From NCBI GenBank assembly GCA_019057385.1, contig JAHQJS010000004.1, positions 741,062 through 805,061 on the forward strand: a DNA stretch of 64,000 bases. The letters run 5' to 3'. A program made the translations under genes and the position numbers. Numbering within the stretch: the first letter of the stretch is position 1; every line of letters begins with the position of its first letter. Of this stretch, positions 1 through 20,401 are shown piece by piece. The stretch comes from Candidatus Borrarchaeum weybense (lineage in GTDB: Archaea; Asgardarchaeota; Sifarchaeia; Borrarchaeales; Borrarchaeaceae). Below the pieces are notes generated by a model that did no database searches, was not told the DNA's origin, and saw nothing but the letters and a program-made list of their open reading frames with translations.

Positions 1-8
1 CTTACGGT

Positions 9-1586
9 ATGGCTGCTTGGAGGATCATTGAGGGCGATATGCCTTACCGTGATTTTTATCATTCACACCCTCCACTTTCTCCCTATTTACTTGCTTTTGT
101 ATTCCTGATATTTGGTGTTGGCGTCATCCAAGCGAGGTTATTCTTAGTTTTTTTCACAACCTTTACAAGTTTCGTGATCTTTTTAGCCGGAAAAAGGATT
201 GATTATAAAACAGGGTTGTTAGGGAGTTTAGTCTATGCAGTTACTCCGTGGTCCGTTGTGTACGGCATGAGGGCGGTAAATGATCATATCGCCATAACTT
301 TCTGTATCATAGGATACTATTTTCTAACACCAGTCTTTGTACAGAATAAAGACAAAATAATGGACGCCGCGGCTGAAAGAAACAGTTTACTTTTAGCAGG
401 TCTTTTTGTAAGCATTGGAGTACTGATTAAAATTATAGTGGCACCAATACTGTTTGCTTTTATCGTTATTTTAATCATTGAAGGACGATATAATGGTGTT
501 GGAATTAGCAATCAGACAAAAAATGTTGGTTTCTTAATTCTCGGGTTCATTATTCCTCTATTAGTTGTGTGTTCGCCCTTTTACTTACTAATCGGTGACG
601 AGTTTACAAAGCAAGTCCTGGGGCAGCATTTTGCGAAACCTCCATCCCCAGGAGAGCGTTGGATTTATCCTGTGGAATATTTAATCTTAGGAAATGCCTA
701 TTTCTTCGTTTTCTTTGCTCTAAGCGTTTTTTTCGCGATACGAAGACCCTATGGAAGGGGGTTAATCATTTGCATTCTTGTTATGATTTTTTCTATATTC
801 TTCTTCGTTCCACGAGCACATGTAAATTATTACCACGCCCTCATCCTGTGGATGTCCATGGTCTGTGGGTTCTTTCCCCTGCCAAATTTGAAATCATTAA
901 AGTCAAAAACAGAATTGGTAATCCTGAATTTCATTATTGTTCTAAATTTATTATTCTACAAGATTTATCGTTATTTTAATCTTTACATCCCAAGAGCAAC
1001 CTATTTTAGTCATATTTCGGCACAAATCGCTCTTGTAGCAACCTCAATCGCGTTAATTGCCTTCATCGTTATGTTAATCAAAGAAGGGCACTATTCCGAT
1101 GGTAGAATTAACGATCAAGTAAAAAATGCACTTTCCTTTCCTTACCAGATTTGGAAACGCCTGAGAAACATTTTTGACCAAGATGGAATAAAAGCAATCA
1201 TTGCGGTACTCTTTATTGTTCTAATTGCGACAACCTATATTTCATACTTTCCTCGTTCTGAAAGTGAGAAGAAAACTGTTGAATGGATTAAAGCAAACAC
1301 TTCCCCCGATGATTATGTTCTGGTTGATAATTTGAAAATCAATTTTTGGTCATTAAGGAGAAGCCCGTTTGCCGAAGTTTCAATAGATCGAACACTCCTT
1401 GGCGAACTTACTGGAGAAATGTTCATTGAAGCATGTTATGCATTTGATGTTAGAGTTGTTGTTGTCACCGGAAGATTGTTTGGAGAATATGAGACGTATG
1501 ATGTTTTTCTAGAGTTTCTGGAGAATAATTATGTGCCAATAACAGAAGGTTATACAATCTACGTACGCATTTATTCTCTACAATAA
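9..1586 (+). CDS. GT-C fold membrane glycosyltransferase (ArnT/PMT-like); frame is open to the window edge, so probably 5'-partial
   Basis: Many TM segments; N-terminal PYRDFYHSHPPL motif typical of ArnT-like GT-C proteins; C-terminal soluble domain. Confidence 0.75.
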   Translation: MAAWRIIEGDMPYRDFYHSHPPLSPYLLAFVFLIFGVGVIQARLFLVFFTTFTSFVIFLAGKRIDYKTGLLGSLVYAVTPWSVVYGMRAVNDHIAITFCIIGYYFLTPVFVQNKDKIMDAAAERNSLLLAGLFVSIGVLIKIIVAPILFAFIVILIIEGRYNGVGISNQTKNVGFLILGFIIPLLVVCSPFYLLIGDEFTKQVLGQHFAKPPSPGERWIYPVEYLILGNAYFFVFFALSVFFAIRRPYGRGLIICILVMIFSIFFFVPRAHVNYYHALILWMSMVCGFFPLPNLKSLKSKTELVILNFIIVLNLLFYKIYRYFNLYIPRATYFSHISAQIALVATSIALIAFIVMLIKEGHYSDGRINDQVKNALSFPYQIWKRLRNIFDQDGIKAIIAVLFIVLIATTYISYFPRSESEKKTVEWIKANTSPDDYVLVDNLKINFWSLRRSPFAEVSIDRTLLGELTGEMFIEACYAFDVRVVVVTGRLFGEYETYDVFLEFLENNYVPITEGYTIYVRIYSLQ

Positions 1587-1684
1587 AAATAGAGGAAATT
1601 GCAATATACCAGAACTATGAGTTTTTTGGAAAAAGTTTTTGATGTTCGAGATCGATCTTTTATGTAATTTATTACGGTGATACA

Positions 1685-1930
1685 ATGACTGACAGACCAA
1701 ACTGTGAAAATTGTGCCATTCCTATGCGCTTTGTTCTCACTGATATTCATGGAGAAAAACTTCGCGGCTGGTACTGTTCCGCCTGTGGTCTATTCAAGCC
1801 TATCGAATCAGATAAAGAGGTAGAACTCAAATTCGACAAAGAAACTATATTGAAGGCAACAACCACGACAGCACTATTTATCGATGATGAAATGGTCGTT
1901 GAAGACTTGACGGAACAACTAGATCGTTAA
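1685..1930 (+). CDS. Small Zn-ribbon protein
   Basis: CENC...CSAC pairs; GGTGA SD-like motif just upstream. Confidence 0.65.
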   Translation: MTDRPNCENCAIPMRFVLTDIHGEKLRGWYCSACGLFKPIESDKEVELKFDKETILKATTTTALFIDDEMVVEDLTEQLDR

Positions 1931-1957
1931 TGTTGTTAAACTTCAATTTTTTTGTTT

Positions 1958-1997
1958 TACCTGAAAATAGGTTTTTCCAAAGTGTTTCAGGTAGAAT
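1958..1997. repeat. 40-bp palindromic direct repeat, copy 1
   Basis: TACCTGAAAATAGGTTTTTCCAAAGTGTTTCAGGTAGAAT, identical to 6461-6500; arms TACCTGAAA/TTTCAGGTA. Confidence 0.95.
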
Positions 1998-2010
1998 CTT
2001 ATCATCGTAC

Positions 2011-2021
2011 TCAGTATTTCA
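2011..2021. repeat. Candidate 11-bp target-site duplication, left copy
   Basis: TCAGTATTTCA, identical to 13160-13170. Confidence 0.5.
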
Positions 2022-2753
2022 TCCCCATTTTTTGTAATTTTCTCAATTACGTCTTCACAAAACAAATTATCGTAGTTTAAATGGCGTAAGCCAATGTGGT
2101 AGAGATCATAATACCCGACTTTTAAGAATGCCAGACATCTCTTCAACGTTATGAAAACTCTCTTCATCGAAAAAGATCATAAACACTGTTGGATCAACTC
2201 TTTTAGTCCAATAACCTTCAACCTCGACTCATCGAAAAGGCGAGTCCATAACCGCCTTATTCATAGAATTCATAAAACTCTTAAGAGAAACTTTGAATTG
2301 ACTTTCCTTACAAAATTAGAATCCTGCTATCCATTCACGAAATTAACGAGCAAAACGCTTCCTAAAAGGAGTTATTGTGATTTAAGACAAGGGTTACACC
2401 TTAAAAGTGATTAGACTATATTTCATATAATCGGAGAAACATGCCATTCTGAGTAGTTACGAATAAATTGAACAGAGTTAAAAAAATAGGAATGTTACTA
2501 ATAATTGGGAATTGATTTGAAACAAACAAAAATGACAGTTATGATTCTTATCGTTGAATATTACTAAGAAAACATACTCCAGAGAGAGTTTCTGTCTTAT
2601 TATAAACGAACTATACTATAGAATCAAGTAAAGAGTCAAAGAAAGATTGTATGTACTGACTTTGCTTGAGTTTTTATCGTTTAAAGATTTATGTAGTTGA
2701 GAATCCATGTAGATGTATGAGCAGTATTTTTGCTGTTAAGGACAGTGTGATAG

Positions 2754-3746
2754 ATGGGAAATGAGTTTGTGACGGTTAAAGGACGAAGATATGCTGTTGA
2801 AGGAAATGGCGAACTCGACCTTGGTATCAACAAAAATCACTCCGCCAAAGAACATTATGATCATTATGAGACTCCTTTTGAAGATATTGCCGAGATAGAG
2901 GGCTTGGAGACCCTCACTCACCTTAAAGAATTAATTCTTGGTCCCAATTATATAACAGAGATCAAGGGCTTGGAAAATCTCAGCAATCTCCAAGTACTCT
3001 CTCTCCATGATAATGAAATCAAGGAGATCAAGGGCTTGGAAAACCTTACTAGCCTTCAAAAGTTAGTCCTCAGTTCTAACAGGATCAAAGAAATTAAAGG
3101 CCTGGAAACTCTTACTGATCTCCGTTACCTAACTCTCAATTCTAATAACATAGAAGTGATCCAGGGATTGGAACACCTCTCTAATCTTCAAAAACTAGAT
3201 CTGCGTTATAATCCAGTAGGTGCCTCAGAAAAGATCTTACAGTGGACAAAGGGTGCACAGGAAGTAGTTAAGTACTGCCAAGAAAAAAAGAAACGCACGC
3301 ATCTTGTTACGTTCAGAGAAGATATTTACGGTGTTTATGATACACTAGACTTAAGCAATAAAGAAATTAAGAATGTCTCTGAGATTGAAGGTTTAGAGCA
3401 TGTTACCCATTTCCGAATACTAAACCTAAGGAATAATTATCTAAAAAAGATCAAAGGACTGGAGTTTCTCTCTGATCTGAAAAAACTAGATCTTAGTAAG
3501 AATCTTATACAAGAGATTACAGGCTTAGAAACTCTCACCAATCTCGAATATCTTGATCTTAGTTTGAACCAGATAAAAGAAATCAAGGGATTGGAAACTC
3601 TTACCAATCTCAAAGAACTATTACTCAATCATAATCCGATAAGAGATGAAGAGAAACATTTAGTAGAGATGAGTGCACAAGAGATTGTGAAATACTGCCA
3701 AGAAAAAGCGAGAGTGACCAAAAAAAAGGCGACTGAAGGCAAATAA
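2754..3746 (+). CDS. Leucine-rich repeat protein (SDS22-like), two capped LRR modules
   Basis: Repeated LxxLxLxxNxIxEIKGLExL 22-aa units; C-cap AQEVVKYCQEK occurs twice. Confidence 0.92.
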   Translation: MGNEFVTVKGRRYAVEGNGELDLGINKNHSAKEHYDHYETPFEDIAEIEGLETLTHLKELILGPNYITEIKGLENLSNLQVLSLHDNEIKEIKGLENLTSLQKLVLSSNRIKEIKGLETLTDLRYLTLNSNNIEVIQGLEHLSNLQKLDLRYNPVGASEKILQWTKGAQEVVKYCQEKKKRTHLVTFREDIYGVYDTLDLSNKEIKNVSEIEGLEHVTHFRILNLRNNYLKKIKGLEFLSDLKKLDLSKNLIQEITGLETLTNLEYLDLSLNQIKEIKGLETLTNLKELLLNHNPIRDEEKHLVEMSAQEIVKYCQEKARVTKKKATEGK

Positions 3747-3758
3747 GGGAGGGAGCGC

Positions 3759-5099
3759 ATGGTAGAGGAGTTTGTGACAGTTAAAGGTAAAAAATACTAT
3801 GTTATTGGAGGCAATCTGGACCTACACGATAAAAAGATTTCTGATATCGCTGAAATCAAAGGCTTAAAGAATCTTACCCATCTTAGAGATTTAGATCTTA
3901 GCAATAATCAGATTGGTGAGATCAAAGGACTGGAACACCTTACTGAACTTAAAATACTAGACCTTAGAGAAAATCGGATAATAGAGATCAAAGGGCTGGA
4001 GCATCTTACCAACCTAGAAGTATTGTTGATTGATAAGAATCCAATAAAAAAAGAAGAATGGAATTTTGTATATGGCGAACATGAATGGGATGGTAAGTTA
4101 ATATCTGGAGCGCCAGTTTGGAGACTCGTGGAATATAGTCGATTAAAATCGCACAATCTTTTTGTAACAATTAGGAAAAAGAAATATTATGTAGATGTTG
4201 ATGAAGGCGAGCTTAACCTAAATGGCAAAGAAATCACTAGTATCGATGAAATCACAGGGCTGGAAAAGCTCAAAGACCTTGAAATACTCCACTTAGACTG
4301 GAATCAGATAACAGAGATCAAGGGGCTAGAGAACCTAGTAAGTCTAAAAGAACTCAACCTTCACTGCAATGAAATTGAAGAAATCAAAGGCTTAAGCAGA
4401 CTTTCTAAGCTTGAACGATTATCCCTTTACAATAATCAAATCAAAGAGATTAAAGGCTTAGAGAATCTCAACAAACTTCGAATATTGCGGCTTAAAGGCA
4501 ATCCGATAGAAGAAATTAAAGGCTTAGAACATCTTACGAATCTTAAAGTATTGCAACTTAATACTAATCTACTAAGTGGTTATGAGAAAAATTTGCTTAG
4601 GTATAACGCTCAAATGGTTGTAAAGTACTGTCAACACCAAAAGGAAGATACATTGCTTCATTTACCTTTTGTAACAGTCAGAGGGGAAAATTATTATGTT
4701 GACGATGATAAGCTCAGCCTTTGGGGTATAAAACTAACCAATATCGCTGAAATTAAAGGATTGGAGAATTTCATCAACCTCAAAAGTCTAAAACTTAGTG
4801 CAAATAGGATAACAACTATTAGTAAACTAGACCAGCTTAAAGATCTTCAAAAACTGGAGCTTAATGAGAATAAAATCAGAGAGATCAACGGTCTAGAAAA
4901 TCTCACTAATCTTAAAGAACTAGATCTTAGTGGAAATCAAATTGAAGAAATTAAAGGACTAGAGAACCTTATAAATTTAGAAAAACTAGACTTATTTGGT
5001 AATCCAATAAGAGAGTATGAGACACATTTGATAGACAGGAGTGCACAGGAAGTCGTGAAATACTGCCAAGAAAAGGCGAGCAAAACACACAGTGAATGA
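3759..5099 (+). CDS. Leucine-rich repeat protein (SDS22-like), three capped LRR modules
   Basis: Same LRR consensus; N-cap FVT(V/I)x(G/K)xxYYV three times; GGGAGG SD upstream. Confidence 0.92.
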   Translation: MVEEFVTVKGKKYYVIGGNLDLHDKKISDIAEIKGLKNLTHLRDLDLSNNQIGEIKGLEHLTELKILDLRENRIIEIKGLEHLTNLEVLLIDKNPIKKEEWNFVYGEHEWDGKLISGAPVWRLVEYSRLKSHNLFVTIRKKKYYVDVDEGELNLNGKEITSIDEITGLEKLKDLEILHLDWNQITEIKGLENLVSLKELNLHCNEIEEIKGLSRLSKLERLSLYNNQIKEIKGLENLNKLRILRLKGNPIEEIKGLEHLTNLKVLQLNTNLLSGYEKNLLRYNAQMVVKYCQHQKEDTLLHLPFVTVRGENYYVDDDKLSLWGIKLTNIAEIKGLENFINLKSLKLSANRITTISKLDQLKDLQKLELNENKIREINGLENLTNLKELDLSGNQIEEIKGLENLINLEKLDLFGNPIREYETHLIDRSAQEVVKYCQEKASKTHSE

Positions 5100-5229
5100 C
5101 GTTCAAAACGGAAAAATAGAAAGACACCTATTTTTTAGATACTGTATCTGTCTGTGACATCTTCCAATCCATAACACTTACGTCAGTTATGTTTGAGTTC
5201 TATTTTTGTGTTTCTTCTTTCTTAACTAA

Positions 5230-5640
5230 TTATCTTAGTTCTGGCTTCATAACAAATCCATGGATTTTAAAATCGATGTCAAAAGTAAAGACTTCATTTA
5301 TACTCCGCCTCTCCATCATTGCGAAACTGAGGCTATCGGTCAGATCTATTTTCTGATCTTGATATCGTTTAAAATATTCTAACGCTTTACTCCAATCTTC
5401 TTTAGTCTCCCATTCAAGCTCTACGATTTTACTAGCTAGAATCTTATCAAGTTCGTATATCGCTAACTGTTTCTCAACTCTTTTAGTAAGTCCGTCTATA
5501 AACTCGATCAGGCAGTGCGTTCCAATTATGAATCGTAGTCCTCTCTTTACAGCGTGTCTAAGGTATTCGACAGCCGTAGCGTGATTTTTATCCTTTTTGT
5601 CACCAAGAGCAATCAATGCACTTGTATCGAGGTATTGCAT
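5230..5640 (-). CDS. vapC: PIN-domain toxin (VapC-like)
   Basis: YLDTSALIAL, E, DLTDSLSFAMM and VFTFDIDF acidic PIN motifs. Confidence 0.9.
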   Translation of the reverse strand: MQYLDTSALIALGDKKDKNHATAVEYLRHAVKRGLRFIIGTHCLIEFIDGLTKRVEKQLAIYELDKILASKIVELEWETKEDWSKALEYFKRYQDQKIDLTDSLSFAMMERRSINEVFTFDIDFKIHGFVMKPELR

Positions 5641-5655
5641 TCTTTTCCCCCAGCG

Positions 5656-5886
5656 TTATGTCCTCCATTCATCCCTTTCGCTCCAAGTTCCTTCTTCAGT
5701 TTCAAAACTGCCAATTATGTCAAACAGGGGATCATGCTCAAGTTCATTCACATATTTTTTAACATATTCCTCTATTGCGTCTCTTATAATGCGTTCGATG
5801 CTTGTTTTCTTGCGCAATGAGATGTTCTTAAGCAAATTATGTAAATATTCATCTATTTCAGTTTGAATGGATTTCACGTTGCTCAT
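5656..5886 (-). CDS. Ribbon-helix-helix antitoxin (VapB-like)
   Basis: Short gene directly upstream of the PIN toxin; SIERIIRDAIEEY RHH-like helix; DPLFDIIG tail. Confidence 0.75.
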   Translation of the reverse strand: MSNVKSIQTEIDEYLHNLLKNISLRKKTSIERIIRDAIEEYVKKYVNELEHDPLFDIIGSFETEEGTWSERDEWRT

Positions 5887-5984
5887 ACATTTTCACCAAG
5901 CCGTATATTGCATCTAGTTATTAAAATACTTGTTGACTGCTTTGAATATTATTCATAACCGTGCTTAAAAACTCTGAGTTTTCA

Positions 5985-6000
5985 GTGAACTACTCCATCC
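5985..6000 (-). mobile_element. Short remnant of an IS200/IS605-type right end
   Basis: GTGAACTACTCCA is identical to the first 13 nt of the element at 42931. Confidence 0.3.
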
Positions 6001-6460
6001 TTAGAGTTAAAAGTTATTCACCCCTCTGATATGATAATAAACCTTTCTCTAGTCTCGCAGTATAAGTTCTACGCGTATTCGCTACAAATTATTATCACGT
6101 TCTAAAATGCCGTTTCTCCGTGACGTTTTTCTGTGATATTGGAAAATCGACCTTCATAAGTCTAATATTTTAATAGAACAAAACTAGAACTATATCGCAT
6201 CCATCTCTTTCTCTTTAATATCAAAACATCATCAAGACTTGCATTAAATGAAGAAGAAGAGCGCTAATCAGAACGATTCGATAATTAATCAGATACAAAA
6301 TCAAGGATCTGCCCCGTATATCTATATATCTAGCGGGAGAATCTATTTCAAAAATGGCAGTTATTCAATTGATACTTGTTATTTGGAAACTAATAGTTTT
6401 AAAGTAAGGTATATGTCTAAAACAAAAACGTCTAAACAATTTCAAAGATGCCAATTATTC

Positions 6461-6500
6461 TACCTGAAAATAGGTTTTTCCAAAGTGTTTCAGGTAGAAT
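6461..6500. repeat. 40-bp palindromic direct repeat, copy 2
   Basis: Identical to 1958-1997; here the inverted arms are a perfect 13 bp (ATTCTACCTGAAA 6457-6469 / TTTCAGGTAGAAT 6488-6500). Confidence 0.95.
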
Positions 6501-6772
6501 AGACAGTTTTATACCTTCCATTTTTTCAAGAACAGTTGAAGAATGCTTAGGTATTGCTACAAATACATTTGGAATCTACTTGGTTCAAAATCAAACCTTT
6601 TTAGAGATTTCATTCTTCTATGATAACTTCATACTTCTAAACTAGAAGAACAGTTTGAATTTTAGAGACGCTCAAGATACATAACCTGCAATTTTCGGTA
6701 TAATTTTAATATACTCGCTTTATAAATTAATTCTTACCCTTTCATATATGGGTACTGACGCTGCCACGTATT

Positions 6773-9700
6773 GTGGATATATATTCAGTGATTGAACGAT
6801 TGATACAAGCTAATTATCATAAGCTCTGGTTTTTCCAAGATAAGTCGGTGCGTGCTTTCAGGGAAGGAAAAGATATATTGATAAAAGCTCCAACTGGTGC
6901 TGGAAAAACGCTTATTCCACTTATCTGTGCTACACTTGTTCTTGGAGAAAAATTGCGTTGTGTGTTTCTCGTACCAACAAGGCGATTAATTGACCAGACC
7001 TACGACCAGCTTGAAGACTGGTTTAAAAGTTTACCACGATATCAGAAAAAATATCGTATCGTCAAGGTAACAGGAGACGAGAGACCTTCTCACCGGGAAA
7101 TCAAAAGGGCTAACATCATCGTAACCACATATGAATCTTTTAATGGACTACTGTCGAAACAGTATGAGTACGCTCTCCTGAAGAAAGTAGGACTCGTAAT
7201 AGTCGATGAAATGCACTACATCAGCGATGCGGAACGAGGAGGACGGCTTGAGGATGCCATTGTCAAGGCAAAACTATGGTTGCGTCGTCGTCCCCAGATG
7301 ATCTATCTGGCGGCTACCTTAGGAAATGCAGAAGAAATCGGAGAGTGGTTAAAAGCCGAAGTTATCCAAACGACAAAACGCCACTCAAAAATAATTGTTG
7401 GAACCCCAATCAAAGTCTATGATGAGTATGAACGGTTAGAAACCATTTTTAGACTGATTAAAGAGACCTATGAGTTAGAGGTAGGGGCAAAGGAGACAGA
7501 TAAAAGATGTGTATTAATCTTTTGTAGAAGGCGACAGGACACCGAACTCAGAGCTTGGGAACTGACAAAAAAATGTGAGGACATGTGTTACAAGCTAACC
7601 GTTTCCTATAGCCATGCTGGGCTAAAAGCTATAGAACGACAAAGGCGGATGAAGTCATTTCGAAAGGGAGAGATTGATGTCCTTTTCACTACAACTGAAT
7701 ATAGAGAAGGAATAGACGCCCCAGTTCTGCGGATTATTATAGCGGATACAGAGGTTTTTGATTCACTGGAATTAGAACAGATGATAGGGAGGGCTGCACG
7801 ACCTCGTTTTTTTGAGATTGGATATGCAAATCTGATCATTCAAGGGAATGTAAACGTTATTTTGAGTAAAAACGAGATATCAATAGAGAATGGAGCAATT
7901 CAATTTAAGGAAAAACCTTTGAAAAGTCAGGCAAAACGTTATTTGAGCGGGATCATCCTCAATAGAGTGGCACGAGGGGCGGTTTCAACAGGGCAACTCA
8001 TCAGGTATCTTAAAGAATTCTATTTCTATTATGAGGAAAAAAGGCGAATAAGCAATTGGAATAGACTTTTACACACCGCGATTTCTAAACAAGAAGTATT
8101 CATACTCACAAAAGAGAATGATAAAAAGCTTTTTTCCTTAATCAATGGCAATGAACGTTACAGACGAGAAGACAAAGCAAACTTTCAATTATTTGTAAAG
8201 GGTTTCTTGAGCCACGTATTTGAAGCTGTAAAGGTCCGAAAGAAACGTACAAAGCGGAAGAAAAAATATAAACTTGAAAGCGAAGTAGTTTGCGATCTTC
8301 TAAAAGAATATTCTCATATTGAACATAAACGCTCTGAGAAAAGACTTAAAGAGCAGGTTAAAATACATCTACTTTATCTTATTCATGCGGGTTTTCTGGA
8401 GAGGAAATATAACAAAGTTGACGCAATAAAGAGTGGAAAATACAGGGCAACGGATGAGGGACGGTGGGCAAGTCAGTTTTTATTACGAGTCAATGATGCT
8501 CTTAAAATCCATCAATTCTTTCAAACCCGGAGATTCTATTCAGATGATGATACATTCGAGAAATTGGCTAACCTTATAGGTGAACGTGTATGTGAGCATG
8601 ATAATGAGCGATACGGGGTGAAGCAATATAGTGGGTTCATAAAGTTTTTGGTACTGGGATTTGATTTAGATGAGGCCGCGAAAAAAACAGGGATTAGACT
8701 GGGGGATGCTGAAGGATGTAGAAAGACTGCCACATGGATGGCAGAAGCGATGCAGGCTTACGTGGAAATGAATATCCCGTTCATTATACCTGTGGCGAAG
8801 AGTATTGTTGAATCACTTACTTTGCGAGAAAGGGATGATCCCCGTAAAAAGGTGCGACGATATGTAAAAGAAAAAGCGCCACCATATCCAGGTATTCAGG
8901 AAGCGATTAATGCTGTTCTTGAACAGGGAAGGATTGTAACGTATGATGACCTCCATGAAGTAATTACTGACCGTTATGGCGATTCTATTGCCCGTATAAC
9001 GACTATTAGGAACGTCCTTGATTTAGCGGTGCATGGGAAACTTGTAAAATTCTCACGAGGTAAAGGCGTAGGGCGCCCTTTAAGTCAAGTTTGCAGTACT
9101 AAAGCACAAATTCCTGAGTATTTTCACAAGACCTGTGGTTCATGTGTTTTTCGTATTACTATAACGGATGAGAGCGAAAAGGAACACGAAAATCAACGGT
9201 ACATCTGTGAATTACGCAGAGACTATAATAAACACACGAAAACCAATACTTTAAGTTCCTATGTCACACAAAAATATGGAGCATGTAGATATCACAACTC
9301 TTCGCGAAAGAGGAAACTTCGTTCAATTAAGAGTTTGAAAGCAATCAATGCACTTGAGGCGATCTGTCATATTTGTCAAGCAGCAGTAGTTCAGATACCA
9401 CAAACTTATAATCGTTACACTCGATGTCCGAATTGTGATTCAGAATATTACTACCGCTGGGATGGAAGGATCAATGTTAAACCTGGTGTAGGAGATCTTC
9501 TTCAAGACGCTCTCAAAGATATTCTAGGAAAGGTTGTTAAGCCTACGAAAATTTGGCAAAAAAGAGAAGGCGATATACAGCGACACTATATGAAACTAAT
9601 AATCAAGAAAGGTGAAAATGCTTATGTTAACCAAAATAAACTCTTTTATATCCCAAAGGAAGGAAAAGCACGCTCATATCTATTAGATGCTATTCATTTT

Positions 9701-10765
9701 ATTGGGGTTTGTGATGGCGTAAAACTCAAACAACAAGTCTATAATAAACTTGGTGACAGAATTTTTCCTGAGAGACATTTAAAGAAAGCGCCACGAGTTC
9801 CCTCTGATCAGTACAATGACGTTTTTAATTTCCAGATAACTGACACACTTAAAGAACGTGCAGAAAGACTAAGAAGAACAGTCGAGGGTGCACATTTTGC
9901 CAGGATAATTGTAACGAGTAAAAAACTAAGTAATGTTCTTCTTACACTACAAGCTGAAAAGGATGAATTGTTAAATTCAAGAGACGTCGAAAGGTTATTC
10001 TTCAAACAAATGAATGTTGTCGCCCACACTGTTATGCATTGGACTGGGAATAGAGATAATCTTCTCAGTTTTGAAGGAATTGGTGAACGTTACGCCTGGG
10101 AAGGTTTGAAACTTATTGTGAAAGATACTGCTTTGAAATGTGGTAGTCGGACTCAGGAGCGGCATATCTTTTCTGTTCCCTTTATCGGAATGGTGAAGGC
10201 ACGTTCGCCCTTTAGCACAGGACTTAATGCTATATACCGTCGCGCGCTTCAATTCTGTCGACACGCCCTCTATAATGTGGGTTTTTCTTGGCATCCCGGG
10301 GAACTTGTCTTGCATTTTCAAAGAGGGAAAGGACAACGAATTTCCATAGGTGCTATCCTCGACTTTCGCGAACTGTTTCTTCCACTCTTTAGATATGTGT
10401 ATGCTAAAGCATGTAAAGAGAGAGAAATTAATGAAAACGATTTCATACGATCAAACACCCATCGGGGAGAAGAAATATATTCGCTTACCGAGAAGGGAGA
10501 GGAGAAGATTAGCAAGTTATTTGAAAGAATAATGAATGAACGGGTTTATTATCTGAACACATTTATGCCATTACATACCGCTATAAAGCAATGCGCTAAG
10601 TCTCTCTGCAACTTTCTATTGCATAAATCGCCTTTTTCTCCTTTTATCTGTGCTTTGGATGAAGAACAATTTAAAGAGATTTCTAAACGATTTCAAAATA
10701 TAGAACGATTTTGTGCTTCATTAGGAAAAGGACCTCCGATTCCTAATGTGTTTGCTATGGCATAA
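6773..10765 (+). CDS. Ski2/Hel308-like SF2 helicase fused to wHTH, Zn fingers and a C-terminal diverged Cas1-like integrase domain
   Basis: Helicase motifs APTGAGKT, VPTRRL, TTYE, DEMH, LAAT, HAGL, QMIGRAARP. Cys clusters CGSC..C..C and CHIC..CPNC. C-terminal LLSFEGIGERYAW / PFSTGLNAIY / VLH..ISIGAILDFRELF match the Cas1 E..H..DxxE catalytic pattern. Confidence 0.8.
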   Translation: MDIYSVIERLIQANYHKLWFFQDKSVRAFREGKDILIKAPTGAGKTLIPLICATLVLGEKLRCVFLVPTRRLIDQTYDQLEDWFKSLPRYQKKYRIVKVTGDERPSHREIKRANIIVTTYESFNGLLSKQYEYALLKKVGLVIVDEMHYISDAERGGRLEDAIVKAKLWLRRRPQMIYLAATLGNAEEIGEWLKAEVIQTTKRHSKIIVGTPIKVYDEYERLETIFRLIKETYELEVGAKETDKRCVLIFCRRRQDTELRAWELTKKCEDMCYKLTVSYSHAGLKAIERQRRMKSFRKGEIDVLFTTTEYREGIDAPVLRIIIADTEVFDSLELEQMIGRAARPRFFEIGYANLIIQGNVNVILSKNEISIENGAIQFKEKPLKSQAKRYLSGIILNRVARGAVSTGQLIRYLKEFYFYYEEKRRISNWNRLLHTAISKQEVFILTKENDKKLFSLINGNERYRREDKANFQLFVKGFLSHVFEAVKVRKKRTKRKKKYKLESEVVCDLLKEYSHIEHKRSEKRLKEQVKIHLLYLIHAGFLERKYNKVDAIKSGKYRATDEGRWASQFLLRVNDALKIHQFFQTRRFYSDDDTFEKLANLIGERVCEHDNERYGVKQYSGFIKFLVLGFDLDEAAKKTGIRLGDAEGCRKTATWMAEAMQAYVEMNIPFIIPVAKSIVESLTLRERDDPRKKVRRYVKEKAPPYPGIQEAINAVLEQGRIVTYDDLHEVITDRYGDSIARITTIRNVLDLAVHGKLVKFSRGKGVGRPLSQVCSTKAQIPEYFHKTCGSCVFRITITDESEKEHENQRYICELRRDYNKHTKTNTLSSYVTQKYGACRYHNSSRKRKLRSIKSLKAINALEAICHICQAAVVQIPQTYNRYTRCPNCDSEYYYRWDGRINVKPGVGDLLQDALKDILGKVVKPTKIWQKREGDIQRHYMKLIIKKGENAYVNQNKLFYIPKEGKARSYLLDAIHFIGVCDGVKLKQQVYNKLGDRIFPERHLKKAPRVPSDQYNDVFNFQITDTLKERAERLRRTVEGAHFARIIVTSKKLSNVLLTLQAEKDELLNSRDVERLFFKQMNVVAHTVMHWTGNRDNLLSFEGIGERYAWEGLKLIVKDTALKCGSRTQERHIFSVPFIGMVKARSPFSTGLNAIYRRALQFCRHALYNVGFSWHPGELVLHFQRGKGQRISIGAILDFRELFLPLFRYVYAKACKEREINENDFIRSNTHRGEEIYSLTEKGEEKISKLFERIMNERVYYLNTFMPLHTAIKQCAKSLCNFLLHKSPFSPFICALDEEQFKEISKRFQNIERFCASLGKGPPIPNVFAMA

Positions 10766-11026
10766 ATCAAATATCATTTTCTGTTTTTTCCTTTGACTTG
10801 GATTAGTGTTGACCATTTATGCAACCCTTTTTGTTATGGCAGAAATTTAAAGTTTTCATGAATTTTTAGCCATTTTTCTTAAAAATTTATTGATTCAAAA
10901 CAACTTTTTACTAAAGTATAAAGGATTTTTCTTATGTTTCCAAAAAGATAGTTGAAAACGTCTTTAAAATGCTTTATTTTCAAAAAGAAGTGTATAAAAT
11001 ACTTCATTATACTAAAAAAAGGTAGA

Positions 11027-11048
11027 GAAAGCGATAGGTTTATATATC
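11027..11048 (+). promoter_or_regulatory. Putative archaeal BRE/TATA promoter of the cas7-like gene
   Basis: Purine-rich stretch, then TTTATATA at 11039-11046, about 45 nt before the ATG; GAGGT SD at 11080. Confidence 0.55.
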
Positions 11049-11091
11049 TGGTTGCAAAAGGTATATTTGAAAAATCAACGAGGTTAGTCAA

Positions 11092-11877
11092 ATGAAAACC
11101 ACAAAAAAACAAATTGTAGTTCGTGCCTATACTCCGATTGCCAAGCCCCTGAATGCCTCCATCCAGAAAAACTCTACTATGTTGCTTCTCGGTGAAATTC
11201 CGTATACAAATGGAGGAAAGACCTTCAATACTAAGGTGTATTACATCAAGGGTCTGCGTGGCATGTTACGACATGCTGCAATGAAACTTGCGTATGATTG
11301 TGGGATTGAAGTTTGCCATACTAGCGAAAAAACCGAACTCAAAGATGGTACAAAACTGATGCCTGTGGGATTTCATACATTAGGGAGTTGTGATCCTCCT
11401 TGTATTCTTCAGCGTATCTTTGGCAGTTTTCGCAAAGAGTCTCGAATTTCAGTTTCGGCGGATCCTATTACTTCTATCTCTCATAAAGACTATACAACCG
11501 ATGTAGCGGTGCAAAAAGTCCATATTGCCAGCGAAAATCGAATAGCCATGAGCTTTGAGCGGATTCCGATACAGGATTTTCGTGAAAGTTATTTCAGCGG
11601 TTATTTTACCTTCTCCATTGATGTGACTCAATTAACCAAAGAGGAAATTAAGTTTCTTATTGAATCATTGCTCTATATCGAGACACTTGGCGGCGGTAAA
11701 AATGCAGGCTATGGGCAGGTCAAATTATTAGACTTTGATCTCCAAAATATTGAAGTCGAGAAAAAAATAGAACGAGAAGATGGCGTCTATAAGTTCTCTG
11801 AGGACATAAAAGCTGAACCAGTTGTACTTGACGGTATTGAGGATTGGAGGGAAACTATAGTCTCAGTAGACACATGA
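11092..11877 (+). CDS. cas7: Cas7-group RAMP protein
   Basis: KGLRGMLRH helix, Cys insert with CILQRIFGS, thumb region ENRI, glycine-rich loop LGGGKNAGYGQV. Confidence 0.85.
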   Translation: MKTTKKQIVVRAYTPIAKPLNASIQKNSTMLLLGEIPYTNGGKTFNTKVYYIKGLRGMLRHAAMKLAYDCGIEVCHTSEKTELKDGTKLMPVGFHTLGSCDPPCILQRIFGSFRKESRISVSADPITSISHKDYTTDVAVQKVHIASENRIAMSFERIPIQDFRESYFSGYFTFSIDVTQLTKEEIKFLIESLLYIETLGGGKNAGYGQVKLLDFDLQNIEVEKKIEREDGVYKFSEDIKAEPVVLDGIEDWRETIVSVDT

Positions 11878-11943
11878 GGGGATTAAATGATTCATGAAAA
11901 GGCTTTATTTCATTTCTTTTCTTTTTTCTCTTCTCTTCTCATC

Positions 11944-12075
11944 CATGACGGTCTGCTACTTGCATATCGCGGGTGGCACGTTCTGGTACATGAGACCGAA
12001 CCATCTGAGAGGCCCCACGCCTCCAGTATTGATGGGGACGGATGACAGGCAACGGGACGATAAAAGTGATATCCA
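11944..12075 (+). ncRNA. Putative structured ncRNA, copy 1 (132 nt)
   Basis: About 75% identical by hand alignment to 13034-13159, with compensatory changes in stems; GC-rich in AT-rich context; G-U pairs favour the + strand. Confidence 0.65.
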
Positions 12076-12113
12076 ATATACGAATAAAAGGTAAAGAAAC
12101 CGATATGGTTAGA

Positions 12114-12142
12114 TATCCCGTTATATTCATTCTAACGGGATA
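12114..12142. repeat. Perfect 10-bp inverted repeat (hairpin or operator) upstream of the Cas5-HD gene
   Basis: TATCCCGTTA-N9-TAACGGGATA. Confidence 0.8.
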
Positions 12143-12164
12143 AACACTATAATGAGGGTTAGAA

Positions 12165-12974
12165 ATGGTAAAAAACTGGGTTAAATTGACGGGCATAACG
12201 AAAACACCTGTGATCTCCAAGCGAAAACGATTTGGAATTAAGGGCATAGGAGTGATTACTATTCATGGTCGTCCTAGAGCCTTCGGCAAACTGACAAAAG
12301 GAGAAAGACGGGCACCCATGACTTTTAGAGCATGGTATGGACATGTTGAGTTTATTGTTCCAGAACATAAACTTGAGACCGCATTCTCCATTGATCGCCT
12401 CGGACGCTACACCCATGAAGGCATGGGACTCATACAATGGAACGAAGTGAAAAAACTCCACAATAAGCCTCTCTACTTCTCGAGAAATATCATCATCCGA
12501 AAAATGCTCCCTTCCAACCTTACCGAAATACAACAAAAACTCATGATCGCTATGCTTCTCCATGACTTCGTTAATACCGAAAGGCACTCAAGTAAAATCT
12601 ATACTGAAATCAATATTCTTGATGAAGAAATCTACAAATTAGTAAAAAATCACCACAACTATGATACCGACGAAAAACAACTTCCTCTTCTTTCTATCCT
12701 TCAATATTATGATAGATTATCTTCCTCTATTTCTCGAAAATTCAAGTGGTCTGCTTACTCGCGGTATCGCGTCACAGAATTAGAAAAAATTGATTTTCAA
12801 GTTCTAAAAAGGGAAATTGAATCACGACAACATTCTATTTATCCCCTTTATACCTCTATCCGTAAATCACAAATTCTTGGCAAAATAAATGAAGCACTCG
12901 CTTTTGGCTTTTCTTCTCTGAAGAACCATCTACTCTTAATGGTGAACCTCTATCTTAATGATTTACCGAGTTGA
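12165..12974 (+). CDS. Compact Cas5-like RAMP fused to an HD nuclease domain
   Basis: N-terminal KLTGITKTP strand and G-rich loop LGRYTHEGMG; C-terminal MLLHD, KNHH and YYDRLSS motifs typical of CRISPR-associated HD domains. Confidence 0.7.
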   Translation: MVKNWVKLTGITKTPVISKRKRFGIKGIGVITIHGRPRAFGKLTKGERRAPMTFRAWYGHVEFIVPEHKLETAFSIDRLGRYTHEGMGLIQWNEVKKLHNKPLYFSRNIIIRKMLPSNLTEIQQKLMIAMLLHDFVNTERHSSKIYTEINILDEEIYKLVKNHHNYDTDEKQLPLLSILQYYDRLSSSISRKFKWSAYSRYRVTELEKIDFQVLKREIESRQHSIYPLYTSIRKSQILGKINEALAFGFSSLKNHLLLMVNLYLNDLPS

Positions 12975-13033
12975 GTTCTTATGTTCCAAATTATGGTGTT
13001 ATTGTTTCTCTTCATTGGTAAATGCATCAACTA

Positions 13034-13159
13034 CAAGACGGAATGCTCTTCGCTCTACGCCCAGAGCACGTTCTTGTGCATGAGACTGCACCTGAGAGGT
13101 CCCACGCCTTCTTCGACGGGAATGTATGACAGGCACAGGGACGATAAAAGTGATACCCA
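13034..13159 (+). ncRNA. Putative structured ncRNA, copy 2 (126 nt), abutting the putative right junction
   Basis: Homologous to 11944-12075; shared blocks GCACGTTCT, CATGAGAC, CTGAGAGG, CCCACGCCT, ATGACAGGCA, GGGACGATAAAAGTGATA. Confidence 0.65.
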
Positions 13160-13170
13160 TCAGTATTTCA
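13160..13170. repeat. Candidate 11-bp target-site duplication, right copy (includes the stop codon of the HerA-like gene)
   Basis: TCAGTATTTCA, identical to 2011-2021. Confidence 0.5.
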
Positions 13171-15064
13171 GAAATGGACGACCCAGAAGAATGTATTCTA
13201 TGAAATTAGCTCGTTTAGCGCTCTTTATAATTTTCTCAAATTTCTTACGAACCCGATTTTCATCAACGTTTAATTCAGACACATCTATTTCGTCCATAAC
13301 GTTTTTAAGAAGTTTTTCGAAATCATAGACAAGTTTCTCGCCCTCCAAGTGGGCTAAACCCGTTTTAAGGGCGGTATTCACCTCTATGTAATACCACTCA
13401 CGAGCAACTGGGTACTTTAGATGCCCCTTTTTTACTAAATCTCTAAGGAATTCCAAGCCAAATTCAGTGTGTCCTAACTCTTCTAAACGTGCTGCTAATG
13501 CGGCGATGACATCTTCATTTGACGAGGGTGTCTTAACTCCAACGATACGTGGACGCTTTAATGCAGTTTCTAATTCTTCCTCACTCATTTTCGGTGTTGG
13601 TAGTTCATCCAAAATGTCCTCTTCTTTGATTATCTCTTTGTCCTTAATTTTATCTTTTGGTTTCATACCCACTGGTGTTTCAATTTCGGTTTTTGGTTCA
13701 ATTGTTTCGGTTGGGGGTTGAACTTCTTCAGGTTTCACTTCGGGGACTTTGGTGACTTCGGGAGTCGACTCTTCGATAATTCCTGCTGAGATAAGTGCTT
13801 CTTTCAGTTTTCTTACATCATTTTCTGTTAATGTTTCATGTTCTGTAAGTAACCAGCGCGTTTTAAAAAATTGAATATCCTTTTTCAAGTCTGGGGACAC
13901 AAGTACAAAATTACCTGCTTCGAGCCGTGGTAATTTATTGATGATTTTTGCTGCTCGGGTTTCACCGGCACCTGCAGTCACGATGTGTTCAATGGCTTCA
14001 CGAGATTGACGGGCGGTAATTCTTCCTATCGCAAAAGTGTTCATCTGCTCAAAAGCTTTGTAGTCCACGTCCTTAGGGCTTTGGGTCGCAATAATGCAGA
14101 TAACTCCATATTTGCGTGCCTGACGAAATATAAGTTTCAACCCTTCCTTTGGACCAGGTTTCACTGTCCCTGAAGGACAAAAAGGAGCAATCTCGTCAAT
14201 GAAGAAAATCAATCGTGGTTTTTTGGAGGAGCCTTGGTTTATCATCCAATCATACAAGCGGTTCACTAATATCGAAATGAAAAAATGCCTTTCTTCATCT
14301 GTTGTGAGGGTTTTGAGAAAGAAAACATTGATAGGTGTACGCCCTTTTTCTTTCTTTATTAACTTCGTGATATTTAGTCTCTCTCCTAATTCAAAAAGCA
14401 ATTCTGACGTCCCAATTGTTAAACTTCTAATGGATTGACTTAGTCGTTCTCTTTCAGCATCTTTTAGATACTTTCCATAGTCGACTGAATTTAATGGATC
14501 TTCTACAAGAAGATCTGCTAAATGTTTCAAATCTTTAATTTCTTTATCTTTTTGCCAGTAGTTTTTCATAAGTTCGTAAATCACCGCAAATGCTTTTGAT
14601 TCATAGCTGCTCGGCAGCCCAGTTACCTTTATTAGAACCCTTACCAGTGTACGGCTGGAATTGTCGAGTAACCTGATAGCATCTTCATGTTCTGCCTTCA
14701 CATCAGGAAATACTATGGGATCTATACAGATTGGAAGACCCTTTGTTGAAGCAGGAGTAAATATTTTTACATAAACTTTGTCCTTATATTCTCTAAGCAT
14801 TTTTAATGGAAGTCCATGTTCTTCTATGACTTTTGGATCGGCAAGCTTAATCAACGAAGCAATATCACCTTGAGGGTCCAAGGCAATTATTGGGATTCCT
14901 TCTTTAGCTGCTTCTTCAATAATAATTTTTGCTAAAACGGTCTTACCAGACCCTGTCGATCCAAAAGCTGCCATATGTCTAACTAAAATTTTGGCAGGTA
15001 TTTCCAAATGCTTTTCTGTAGGATTTCCATCCTTATCTACTTCATAACCTATAAATAGTGACAT
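13160..15064 (-). CDS. HerA/FtsK-superfamily ATPase (DUF87-like) with acidic/Pro-rich linker and C-terminal domain
   Basis: HMAAFGSTGSGKT, ALDPQGD, FFIDEI, ARKYGV..ATQSP motifs. Confidence 0.85.
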   Translation of the reverse strand: MSLFIGYEVDKDGNPTEKHLEIPAKILVRHMAAFGSTGSGKTVLAKIIIEEAAKEGIPIIALDPQGDIASLIKLADPKVIEEHGLPLKMLREYKDKVYVKIFTPASTKGLPICIDPIVFPDVKAEHEDAIRLLDNSSRTLVRVLIKVTGLPSSYESKAFAVIYELMKNYWQKDKEIKDLKHLADLLVEDPLNSVDYGKYLKDAERERLSQSIRSLTIGTSELLFELGERLNITKLIKKEKGRTPINVFFLKTLTTDEERHFFISILVNRLYDWMINQGSSKKPRLIFFIDEIAPFCPSGTVKPGPKEGLKLIFRQARKYGVICIIATQSPKDVDYKAFEQMNTFAIGRITARQSREAIEHIVTAGAGETRAAKIINKLPRLEAGNFVLVSPDLKKDIQFFKTRWLLTEHETLTENDVRKLKEALISAGIIEESTPEVTKVPEVKPEEVQPPTETIEPKTEIETPVGMKPKDKIKDKEIIKEEDILDELPTPKMSEEELETALKRPRIVGVKTPSSNEDVIAALAARLEELGHTEFGLEFLRDLVKKGHLKYPVAREWYYIEVNTALKTGLAHLEGEKLVYDFEKLLKNVMDEIDVSELNVDENRVRKKFEKIIKSAKRANFIEYILLGRPFLKY

Positions 15065-15369
15065 TTTTTACCACATTAGAGAGCTAAACGAATACCGATT
15101 GAATCATGAAAAATCACTCACGATCTCAAATAAAGCTTTTCACAAAGTTTTAAAAATCTCTTGTAAAATCGACGAAAACTCAATAATCAATGCAAACACT
15201 AATTTATTGTAACTTTACAGTTTAAGGACAAATCTAAACCCTATTAGCGTCTATTCTATGTGTGAGTGGACAAAGAACAGCAAGTCGGCAATGATAGATT
15301 TAACTATAGTAGTAAAAGTAAAATAGAAAGAAAAAAAGAATTCGGGAGCACCCCTTGCAGGGTGCACGT

Positions 15370-15993
15370 CTAACTCGGTACTTCTTCATATCGACCGCGA
15401 AGTACAACGCCTAGGAGTATGAGTAGCCCAGCTGAAATGGCTCCTAATACCCACGCCGACGTATTAAAGCCGGCAGCTATGTACAAACTGTTGAAGCCAG
15501 CGAGTATCAAGCTTAAGAACACACCTAAAATCAACGAGAACAAGATAAATCTAGCAGTTGTTTCTTTAGAAACTTCTCGTCCCTTGCCTTGTAAAACATC
15601 TACGATGAACCCGAGTTGGCTTAATCCCCACAGAAATATAAATGCCACAAAAATCACTGTCGCATAGTTGAACATCGCTTGTGTCATTTCTGCTTGACTA
15701 GTTCCAGGCCATACAGGCAACATTCCTAGACTGTAGAAGTATCCCGCACCTAAGATTGCTGCAATTACGAACAAAAAGGCAAAAATGTTTCCAAATAGCA
15801 AATCGTCAGGGTGCACGTAGCCTACTCTTCCTTTCTCCTTGAAGAAAGTATTGATGATTGCTACGAACAACACTATCGCAAGAAATACAAATGTGACATA
15901 GTATACAGTTAAGCTCTGAAGCCAAAGACTAAAGACTAATACAGCGCCTCCTATCCCAGACGCCATAGCACCGAAGAAAATCAATCTAACCAC
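15370..15993 (-). CDS. Multi-pass membrane protein, unknown function
   Basis: About six hydrophobic segments; GGAGGT SD before GTG. Confidence 0.7.
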   Translation of the reverse strand: MVRLIFFGAMASGIGGAVLVFSLWLQSLTVYYVTFVFLAIVLFVAIINTFFKEKGRVGYVHPDDLLFGNIFAFLFVIAAILGAGYFYSLGMLPVWPGTSQAEMTQAMFNYATVIFVAFIFLWGLSQLGFIVDVLQGKGREVSKETTARFILFSLILGVFLSLILAGFNSLYIAAGFNTSAWVLGAISAGLLILLGVVLRGRYEEVPS

Positions 15994-16127
15994 ATAATGA
16001 CCTCCAAAATTACCCTAATATCTATTCATATTATATATTATTTGTATTTAATAGGCGACAAAATTACTTAAAAAACCTTGCTTTTGACAATAAAACAATT
16101 TTGAAAGATAATAAACAAGGTGCAAAT

Positions 16128-16967
16128 ATGCCAATTATTGTAACTTCATCTGCCTCAATCGCTGGTAGAACGCTTCATACGCAATTCATTGAACATTATT
16201 CTTTTGAGAAAACAGGAGAGTATTTCGAAAATAATCCAATATACGAGTACCAAACTCAAGATAGATTGATAAAACTCTTAATAACGAGCAGGAAAATTAT
16301 TGAAGCTGACCACCTGAACGAATTTACTACAGATTTGTTTATTTTCGCCAGTAAACATGAATCTGCAGCTAAAGTACCTGCACTTTTAACGCATTCTACC
16401 GGTAATTGGACTATGGAAGCTAAATTTGGTGGTCATCCTAATGAACTTGGTATTGCACCCGCCTTTGCGATTAAAGAAGCATTACTTGAACTTCATAATC
16501 AGAAGACTCGATTAGATCTAGAACAATATGATGTATCTTTAGAAGTTAGTCATCATGGCCCTACTAATTTGAATGCCCCAATTGTTTTTATTGAAGTTGG
16601 AAGCACTCCTGATCAATGGAGTGATAAAAAAGCAGCAGAAGCAGTAGTTAATGCGGCAATGCGTGTTGCTTCTACAAAAAAAAGATACAAAACAGTTATA
16701 GGCATCGGAGGCGGGCATTATGCACCGGAATTTAATCATCTACTTTTGAAAACAGAATATGCAATATCTCACATAGCGCCAAAGTATGTTTTAGATACAA
16801 TTAGCGAAAGCATGATTAAACAAGCAATCGAGCGATCCTTTGAAAAAATTGAATTATGTGTGTTGGATTGGAAAGGTATGAAAAGCCATCATAAAGAAGT
16901 GCTTCTCCAGATCCTTGAGGAATTGCATTTACCTTTTACAAAAGTTCGTAAACTGTTGCGAGCTTAA
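16128..16967 (+). CDS. dtdA: Archaeal D-aminoacyl-tRNA deacylase (DTD2)
   Basis: SKHES, THSTGN, EVSHHGPT, FIEVGS, GGGHYAP motifs; ATG after AGGTG SD. Confidence 0.9.
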   Translation: MPIIVTSSASIAGRTLHTQFIEHYSFEKTGEYFENNPIYEYQTQDRLIKLLITSRKIIEADHLNEFTTDLFIFASKHESAAKVPALLTHSTGNWTMEAKFGGHPNELGIAPAFAIKEALLELHNQKTRLDLEQYDVSLEVSHHGPTNLNAPIVFIEVGSTPDQWSDKKAAEAVVNAAMRVASTKKRYKTVIGIGGGHYAPEFNHLLLKTEYAISHIAPKYVLDTISESMIKQAIERSFEKIELCVLDWKGMKSHHKEVLLQILEELHLPFTKVRKLLRA

Positions 16968-17053
16968 CGTAATGGATTTTGTGTGATATTCTAAATATAA
17001 CAAAATTTTTTAAAACTTTATTACAGTCGAAGGTTTGATCTAAAATTAAGTCT

Positions 17054-18259: not shown

Positions 18260-18318
18260 CTATCTGCATAAAAATTTTTTTTAAGTGGAGAATGAAATTA
18301 TCGTTGGGTGAAGATTGA

Positions 18319-19986: not shown

Positions 19987-19996
19987 GGAGTTAATA

Positions 19997-20401
19997 ATGA
20001 AAAGAATAAAAGTCCTAGTTGCAAAACCTGGCCTTGATGGGCATGATCGTGGAGCTAAAGTTATTTGTAGAGCCTTAAGAGATGCGGGAATGGAGGTAGT
20101 ATATTCTGGCCTTGAACAAACTCCAGAGCAAATTGTAAATGCTGCGATTCAAGAAGATGCAGATGTTATTGGTTTAAGCATATTAAGCGGAGCCCACAGA
20201 GTTATTTTACCAGCAGTTACGAGACTTTTGCAAGAAAAAGGAATTACTGGCGTCCTTGTTGTGTGTGGAGGCATAATCCCGACAGATGACCATGAATTTC
20301 TCAAACAGCACGGAATTGCTGCCATCTTTGGACCCGGCACACCACTCAAAAACGCTGTCAAGTATATTAGAGAGAACGTGAGTAAGGAAAGAGTTCACTA
20401 G
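19997..20401 (+). CDS. Acyl-CoA mutase cobalamin-binding small subunit
   Basis: [12 protein letters not shown] (DxHxxG), SILSGAH, GGIIP; GAGGAG SD. Confidence 0.93.

Follow-up and report, generated by a model that had tools for sequence, protein, structure and literature searches.

The 64,000-nt window analyzed here (contig JAHQJS010000004.1, positions 741,062 to 805,061 of the forward strand, assembly GCA_019057385.1, Candidatus Borrarchaeum weybense) contains an island of about 11.2 kb (~1953/1956 to 13159; all coordinates are window positions) that is inserted at the stop codon of a gene for a HerA-like ATPase and that carries, among others, the gene for a helicase fused to a Cas1-fold domain. 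Comparison with related contigs confirmed that the island is a lineage-specific insertion and fixed its right edge (13159/13160) to the base. The first 11 nt of the right flank are found exactly twice, as TCAGTATTTCA at 13160–13170 and again at 2011–2021, close to the left end of the island. The best explanation that we can offer, tentatively and with somewhat less than an even chance of being correct, is that a mosaic island was inserted at the HerA stop codon and that the 11-nt repeat is a footprint of this integration, of uncertain kind.

The locus is of interest because, in an Asgard archaeon, a module that is multi-copy and lacks a CRISPR array encodes a Cas1-fold domain fused to a helicase, and because the block in which this module lies has an insertion point that was resolved to the base, on a conserved gene's stop codon. 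Should the repeat prove to be a genuine integration footprint, this would give a first indication that the Cas1 fusion moves DNA, together with a concrete target for an in vitro test. Otherwise, the locus remains a record of a variable island, and of a hairpin repeat with breakpoint edges, in a lineage with very few genomes.

The insertion site and its empty counterparts

A preliminary description, made from the sequence of the window alone, had proposed that 2022–13170 is one mobile element flanked by an 11-bp target-site duplication (TSD) that contains the HerA stop codon. Its coordinates were all correct: the two 11-mers, the end of the homology between two structured RNA copies at 13159, the end of the Zn-ribbon gene on the left at 1930 and the HerA stop codon (13160–13162, TGA on the minus strand, closing an open reading frame (ORF) of 634 aa). 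As empty site it had envisaged the Zn-ribbon gene and the HerA-like gene facing each other across the 80 nt at 1931–2010, which contain a T-run and a hairpin with a 13-bp stem.

The relatives compared were the genomes G001–G005, among them Candidatus Borrarchaeum yapensis (G004) of the same genus, and contigs or loci labelled L, some of them metagenomic; the class is represented in the comparison by six genomes. The genome of the window (4.18 Mb) is referred to as G000 and its contigs as C3–C7. Junctions were compared base by base in the window, L051, L049, L014 (the G005 locus) and L013 (the G004 locus); L048 is an independent contig with the same arrangement as G004.

Three related contigs, L051 (HerA DNA 89% identical), L049 and G005/L014, have empty sites. 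As expected for relatives without the block, the Zn-ribbon gene and the HerA-like gene are adjacent and convergent in all three: 20–22 nt separate the stop codon of the Zn-ribbon gene from that of HerA, without the hairpin, the RNA or the 13-nt stretch that follows the hairpin in the window. Relative to these sites, the insert begins at ~1953/1956 with a copy of a hairpin repeat (HP1) and ends at 13159 with the 3' end of a structured RNA (RNA copy 2), and the two mapped edges have 1–2 nt at most in common. HerA is intact beside the insert and its C-terminus is unchanged. The right boundary given earlier was thereby borne out to the base, together with the preservation of the host gene. The left edge is at HP1, ~55–65 nt to the left of the proposed boundary 2021/2022, and therefore the left 11-mer lies inside the insert. 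The relatives thus show no hairpin in the empty site and a breakpoint different from the one proposed, which the preliminary description had itself named as evidence against its element.

The junction between RNA end and HerA is common to the three closest HerA orthologs, those of the window, L047 (96% amino acid identity) and G004/L048 (95%), whereas the next three (93%, 84% and 83–86%) belong to empty sites. A single gain is therefore the simplest history. Contigs of four public runs (X1, X2, X5 and X6; 1400–14400, similarity of at least 85%) contained neither an empty junction (~1955/2021 to 13160/13171) nor a circular junction (13159 to 1956/2022); contigs drop rare variants and are thus silent on rare excision. 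The unitigs of these runs end at the two hairpins.

The 11-nt repeat: footprint or chance

The right flank opens directly with the repeat, and the left copy of the repeat is less than 60 nt from a left edge that was mapped independently via the empty sites. These sites contain a single copy of the homologous 11 nt; in the window the right copy adjoins the edge, and the left copy lies ~55 nt inside, behind the hairpin repeat. A chained alignment of the 73 nt after HP1 (1998–2070) with the right junction gave a p of about 7e-4 to 1e-3 when judged against random genomic 73-mers. The 11-mer is followed by a collinear block in which 15 of 16 positions match (2031–2046 vs 13224–13239) and then by a block of 5/5; the alignment needs a gap of 44 nt, and only 1% of chance 11-mer pairs have a further collinear match this good. 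On this alignment, the 11-mer and the collinear blocks would fit a longer HerA 3'-end duplicate that has lost about 44 nt better than a bare 11-bp stagger.

The insert sits between the short spacer that follows the Zn-ribbon gene on one side and the first nucleotide of the HerA stop codon on the other, with HerA itself left intact. Its parts are, in this order, HP1, a hairpin-bounded segment with genes for leucine-rich-repeat (LRR) proteins and a PIN/RHH pair, a second hairpin (HP2) and a module with paralogs elsewhere in the genome, the last RNA 3' end forming the right edge. The 11-nt repeat would most likely be the footprint of integration into the HerA stop region, either as a short target duplication or as the best-kept part of an att-like or single-crossover HerA 3'-end duplicate, of which about 44 nt would since have been lost. 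HP1 may already have been at the site before integration, or it may have been acquired later; rearrangements at hairpin edges would then have reshaped the island in the sister lineages.

Several results weigh against a footprint. The left 11-mer is off the empty-site junction, and an extra event (HP1 and 13 nt) must be assumed, yet none of the genomes compared has the intermediate site, in which HP1 and the 13 nt would precede the HerA stop codon. G004 has HP1 and no 11-mer behind it. A search of 1–13100 with an nhmmer profile built from six HerA 3' ends gave no match at 2011–2046, and the minus-strand frames of 1941–2760 had no protein-level similarity to HerA (z 0–1.6). Around ten other modules of the genome (five full, five short) no flank repeats above random were found. 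Searches with Pfam and NCBIfam detected neither a tyrosine or serine recombinase, which could have explained an att-type duplicate, nor a transposase among the ORFs of the block. Finally, the best chained match across 12 kb is only 1.6 standard deviations over that of random regions.

The 11-mer could instead be a coincidence, the island having arrived or having been assembled by illegitimate, hairpin-edge or flanking-gene homologous recombination without any target being duplicated. We regard this as doubtful, although it is a serious possibility. Such 11-mers are common: TCAGTATTTCA is present 8 times in the genome, 0.48% of positions are matched by an isolated, exact 11-mer 2–20 kb upstream, and a partner of at least 11 nt was found upstream, within 20 kb, for 3 of 26 RNA 3' ends (9 offsets allowed). 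Searched for blindly, the 11-mer does not stand out. Coincidence is also in keeping with the ordinary blind chain score, the negative nhmmer and protein comparisons, a true left edge at HP1 and edges that share next to nothing; moreover, a hairpin-edge rearrangement with microhomology is directly visible in G004, and jumps in identity to G004 along the locus indicate recombination. Against coincidence are the position of the repeat, whose right copy starts precisely where the right flank does and whose left copy is 55 nt from the mapped left edge, and the collinear match behind it. Only if its nearness to the left edge derived from the empty sites is taken into account does a chance origin become unlikely (p about 1e-3). 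The 11-bp TSD is doubtful: the repeat is exact and its right copy is at the edge, but the left copy is not at the mapped left edge.

The 13 nt after HP1 were also considered as a remnant of the RNA (columns ~41–53), since hairpin-RNA junctions are present in L045 and L046. This candidate was rejected because only 7–9 of 11–14 bases match.

The island as a mosaic and its multi-copy module

To judge from the sequence comparisons, the block is a mosaic island and not one conserved element. The preliminary description had taken the LRR genes, the toxin-antitoxin (TA) pair and the cas-like genes together as one mobile element, which did not hold: the LRR-TA part is confined to this genome, and the cas-like module belongs to a set of diverged paralogs, at least 11 in number. 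The features of the locus are listed in Table 1.

Table 1. Features of the island and its flanks (window positions)
Feature	Position	Strand	Basis or remark
Zn-ribbon gene, 81 aa, left flank	1685–1930	+	ORF with two CxxC pairs; orthologs adjoin HerA in L051, L049 and L014
Spacer common to empty sites (20–22 nt there, abutting the HerA stop codon)	1931–1955		Base-level comparison
HP1, copy of the ~44-nt palindromic repeat (13-bp stem), left arm degenerate; true left edge of the insert	1956–1997	+	Repeat search; absent from empty sites
13 nt between HP1 and left 11-mer, origin unexplained	1998–2010		Not in empty sites nor in G004
Left 11-mer TCAGTATTTCA, about 55 nt within the insert	2011–2021	+	Exact match
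16-mer, 15/16 match to 13224–13239, collinear with the 11-mer	2031–2046	+	Possible relic of a longer HerA 3'-end duplicate
Two LRR protein genes	2754–3746, 3759–5099	+	Pfam LRR_4, LRR_8
PIN toxin gene	5230–5640	-	Pfam PIN at 2e-14
RHH antitoxin-like gene	5656–5886	-	Pfam RHH_3, weak
HP2, second palindromic repeat copy, 270 nt upstream of the helicase-Cas1 gene	6455–6500	+	Repeat search
Ski2/Hel308-like helicase with C-terminal Cas1-fold domain, 1330 aa	6773–10765	+	Pfam DEAD, Helicase_C; Cas1 by profile and structure
RAMP-superfamily protein, 261 aa	11092–11877	+	Pfam RAMPs at 2.8e-9; weak Cas7-type NCBIfam matches
Structured RNA copy 1	11944–12075	+	Copy alignment
269-aa protein, no family assigned (weak HD hint, E 0.023)	12165–12974	+	10 paralogs in the genome
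Structured RNA copy 2, 3' end = right insert edge	13034–13159	+	Copy alignment
Right 11-mer TCAGTATTTCA = HerA stop codon and last codons	13160–13170	+	Exact match
HerA-like ATPase gene in the right flank, intact, 634 aa	13160–15064	-	Pfam DUF87, HerA_C; orthologs 83–96%, same C-terminus

HP1 and HP2 belong to a 46-nt direct repeat, 96% identical, at 1952–1997 and 6455–6500, that contains the palindrome with the 13-bp stem. The LRR plus PIN/RHH part between them is, in these comparisons, a hairpin-bounded segment found in this genome only; no nucleotide homolog of the TA segment and its surroundings was detected in G001–G005. Homology to G004 stops at the hairpin edge (1997) and resumes only within RNA copy 2 (13087). 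G004 and L048 have, in this order, HP1, 2.5 kb with genes for a glycosyltransferase and a methyltransferase, HP2, the last ~75 nt of RNA copy 2 and HerA. The 2.5 kb (L013 7290–9775) are single-copy in G004 and orthologous (94–98%) to G000 C6:114209–116250 and 120019–120414; at the HP2 junction of G004 there is ATTC microhomology, and a gene of 190 aa in G000 is truncated to 78 aa. L047 has half a hairpin fused to the last ~50 nt of RNA copy 2, so that the hairpin is joined to different internal points of this RNA in L047 and in G004. The homology between G000 and its sisters thus ends exactly at hairpin edges, and these edges act as rearrangement breakpoints.

The palindrome itself (~44 nt, perfect, 13-bp stem, 18-nt loop) is dispersed in the genus. 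Besides the window (1952–2002, 6453–6506), copies are found at G000 C7:418119–418162 and C6:724466–724509 and in L013, L039–L046 and L056; the copy number is 4 in G000 and at least 12 in G004, with others in G001–G005 and L056. They are intergenic, with unrelated flanks and often behind gene ends. Three of the G000 copies are identical over 40–44 nt, and inside each local cluster the copies have the same orientation. In being short, perfect palindromes in many intergenic copies, often after gene ends and tied to rearrangement breakpoints, they resemble REP-like (repetitive extragenic palindromic) repeats, the differences being that the hairpin is found here in an Asgard archaeon and that no RAYT-type transposase was found, no search aimed at one having been made.

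A view of the hairpins as CRISPR-like repeats around giant "spacers" captured by Cas1 was rejected as the leading one. The hairpins also flank ordinary genes far from any module (L056, G000 C7 and C6), and what would be the "cassette" in G004 is a single-copy, translocated chromosomal segment joined at microhomology. A CRISPR array was not detected either: 1–20000 contains no short, regularly spaced repeats, the only repeats being the LRR units, the two hairpins and the two RNAs.

The divergence from G004 changes along the locus. Amino acid identity is 99% for a 370-aa gene just upstream of the window, 74% for PMT, 71% for the Zn-ribbon protein, 95% for HerA and 98% for a 207-aa gene. This unevenness points to recombination, and the glycosylation-gene segment appears to have had a separate recombination history.

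The module at the right consists of the genes for helicase-Cas1, the RAMP protein, an RNA, the 269-aa protein and a second RNA. Six full and five or more short modules are present in G000, where the paralogs, at least 11, are distributed over the contigs C3, C4, C5, C6 and C7 (L015–L024). The two ~125-nt RNA copies of the window are alike up to ...CCA at 12075 and 13159 and divergent thereafter; 27 copies were found in the genome, and a 10-bp stem has many compensatory changes across the 27 sequences. Between modules, homology sets in at the helicase start codon and is lost after the RNA 3' end. The modules on other metagenomic contigs have housekeeping-gene surroundings and neither LRR nor TA genes. 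In G004, two modules persist at syntenic sites as internally deleted remnants, from which we infer that the modules are old residents rather than recent transpositions. The helicase-Cas1 gene of one module is split in two (L016 4971–6674 and 6664–9009), one gene for the 269-aa protein is frameshifted (L020), and in L054 three tandem RNA copies lie between the RAMP gene and the 269-aa gene.

The 1330-aa protein was confirmed to end in a Cas1-fold domain fused to a helicase, on the basis of a transitive profile search, conserved columns and an AlphaFold2 model compared with Foldseek. Cas1 serves as integrase both in CRISPR adaptation and in casposons. When the C-terminal 391–530 residues were searched directly against Pfam and the PDB sequences, no Cas1 match was obtained. 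A profile of the C-terminal domain built from eight paralogs and orthologs retrieved 58 proteins among 1.8 billion representatives, several of which are above the Pfam Cas_Cas1 cut-off; hhalign to one of these gave a probability of 98.4%. E1101, H1181 and D1197 are conserved in 25 diverse sequences. The AlphaFold2 model, with a predicted local distance difference test score (pLDDT) of 86.7, has the Cas1 layout of an N-terminal beta domain and a helical domain, and all 50 matches listed by Foldseek against the PDB are Cas1 or casposase chains, the top one being a casposase bound to its integration product.

Comparison with known mobile elements

The target duplication left by casposons is 14–15 bp. 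Casposons are Cas1-encoding, self-synthesizing transposons (PMC4046053, PMC4779613), and a gene for a family B DNA polymerase (PolB) is present in all of them (PMC4046053). The block shares with them a protein of the Cas1/casposase fold, a target at the 3' end of a conserved gene that is kept intact and, possibly, a short direct repeat of the target. It differs in that its Cas1 is fused to a Ski2/Hel308-type helicase and accompanied by a RAMP protein, the 269-aa protein and structured RNAs, and in that the repeat is 11 nt long and displaced from the mapped edge. With Pfam and NCBIfam no polymerase domain was found in any ORF of 1956–13159. Terminal inverted repeats (TIRs), which had already been reported as not apparent, were absent for three choices of ends: left ends starting at 1956, 2022 or 6501, aligned locally with the reverse complement of 12860–13159, scored no higher than the shuffle mean. 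The block is therefore not a casposon, since it lacks PolB and TIRs.

That 2022–13170 is nevertheless one mobile element, moved by helicase-Cas1 with a casposon-like 11-bp TSD at the HerA stop codon, we hold to be unlikely. The fold, the conserved E-H-D triad and the casposase as top structural match are in its favor, as are the exact 11-mer and the preserved 3' end of a conserved gene as target. Against it, the left edge given by the empty sites is ~55–65 nt away from 2021/2022; the block has neither PolB nor, whichever ends are chosen, TIRs; its LRR-TA part does not accompany the module elsewhere, and the other five full and five short modules have no flank repeats. The paralogs are just 35–88% identical in protein sequence, which argues against recent transposition, and no link was found between the Cas1 domain and the insertion. 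Distinctly improbable, too, is a wider generalization, namely that the helicase-Cas1/RAMP/RNA modules would form a new class of Cas1-mobilized elements without PolB or TIRs, which would target the first nucleotide behind the stop codon of conserved genes (HerA, prolyl-tRNA synthetase), with a target duplication of about 11 bp and with the structured RNA at the right end taking part in target choice.

Like att-flanked islands, the block is lineage specific, is inserted at the 3' end of a gene that is preserved, has a possible degenerate direct repeat of this 3' end and carries mosaic cargo (a TA pair, LRR genes and a defence-like module). It differs from these islands in that no tyrosine or serine integrase was found, and the left repeat is split from the junction by the hairpin repeat.

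The structured RNA at the right end, which runs into the flanking DNA, and the hairpin at the left edge are reminiscent of IS200/IS605 elements with TnpB omegaRNA, as is the absence of TIRs and of a clear TSD at the mapped edges. The block differs from these in having no TnpA or TnpB (Pfam), in its size of 11 kb and its mosaic composition, and in that the hairpin is a dispersed repeat found also away from modules.

A related observation concerns RNA copies outside the window. A solitary copy at G000 C7:108013–108106 (L066 2514–2607), which lacks the 5' stem, abuts with its ...ACCCA directly the TGA stop codon of a convergent prolyl-tRNA synthetase (ProRS) gene; G004 has the same copy, and there is none behind the ProRS stop codon in G005. 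Less cleanly, the copy at C6:210643–210760 (L067) abuts the stop codon of a V4R-domain gene, which is likewise convergent. One may ask from this whether the RNA end or the target directs the placement, RNA-ended units being set down right behind the stop codons of conserved convergent genes with no duplication, like the right end of IS200/IS605. We consider this very unlikely. The gapless position of the RNA 3' ends on TCA stop codons at HerA and at ProRS (C7:108013), the third case at C6:210760, the ProRS stop codon of G005 without RNA behind it and the end of inter-module homology at the RNA 3' end are consistent with it. However, just 3 of 17 terminal RNA ends fit, the ProRS copy is solitary and without the 5' stem, the sites share no target motif beyond TCA, and the Pfam search of the block's ORFs gave no match of TnpA or TnpB type.

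LRR genes adjoin the helicase-Cas1 gene in three of the six full modules (L015 11992–16615, L018 12125–13090 and window 2754–5099), in two of them divergently, and P0021, a distant relative with a Cas1 domain, has a weak LRR_4 match; LRR genes and helicase-Cas1 may be functionally linked. A ~1.4-kb stretch (L015 433–1832; G000 C4:~898887–900286) is multi-copy in all five relatives, with many extra matches to its two ends only (about 434–590 and 1757–1832). It is probably an insertion sequence (IS) element with derived copies resembling miniature inverted-repeat transposable elements (MITEs).

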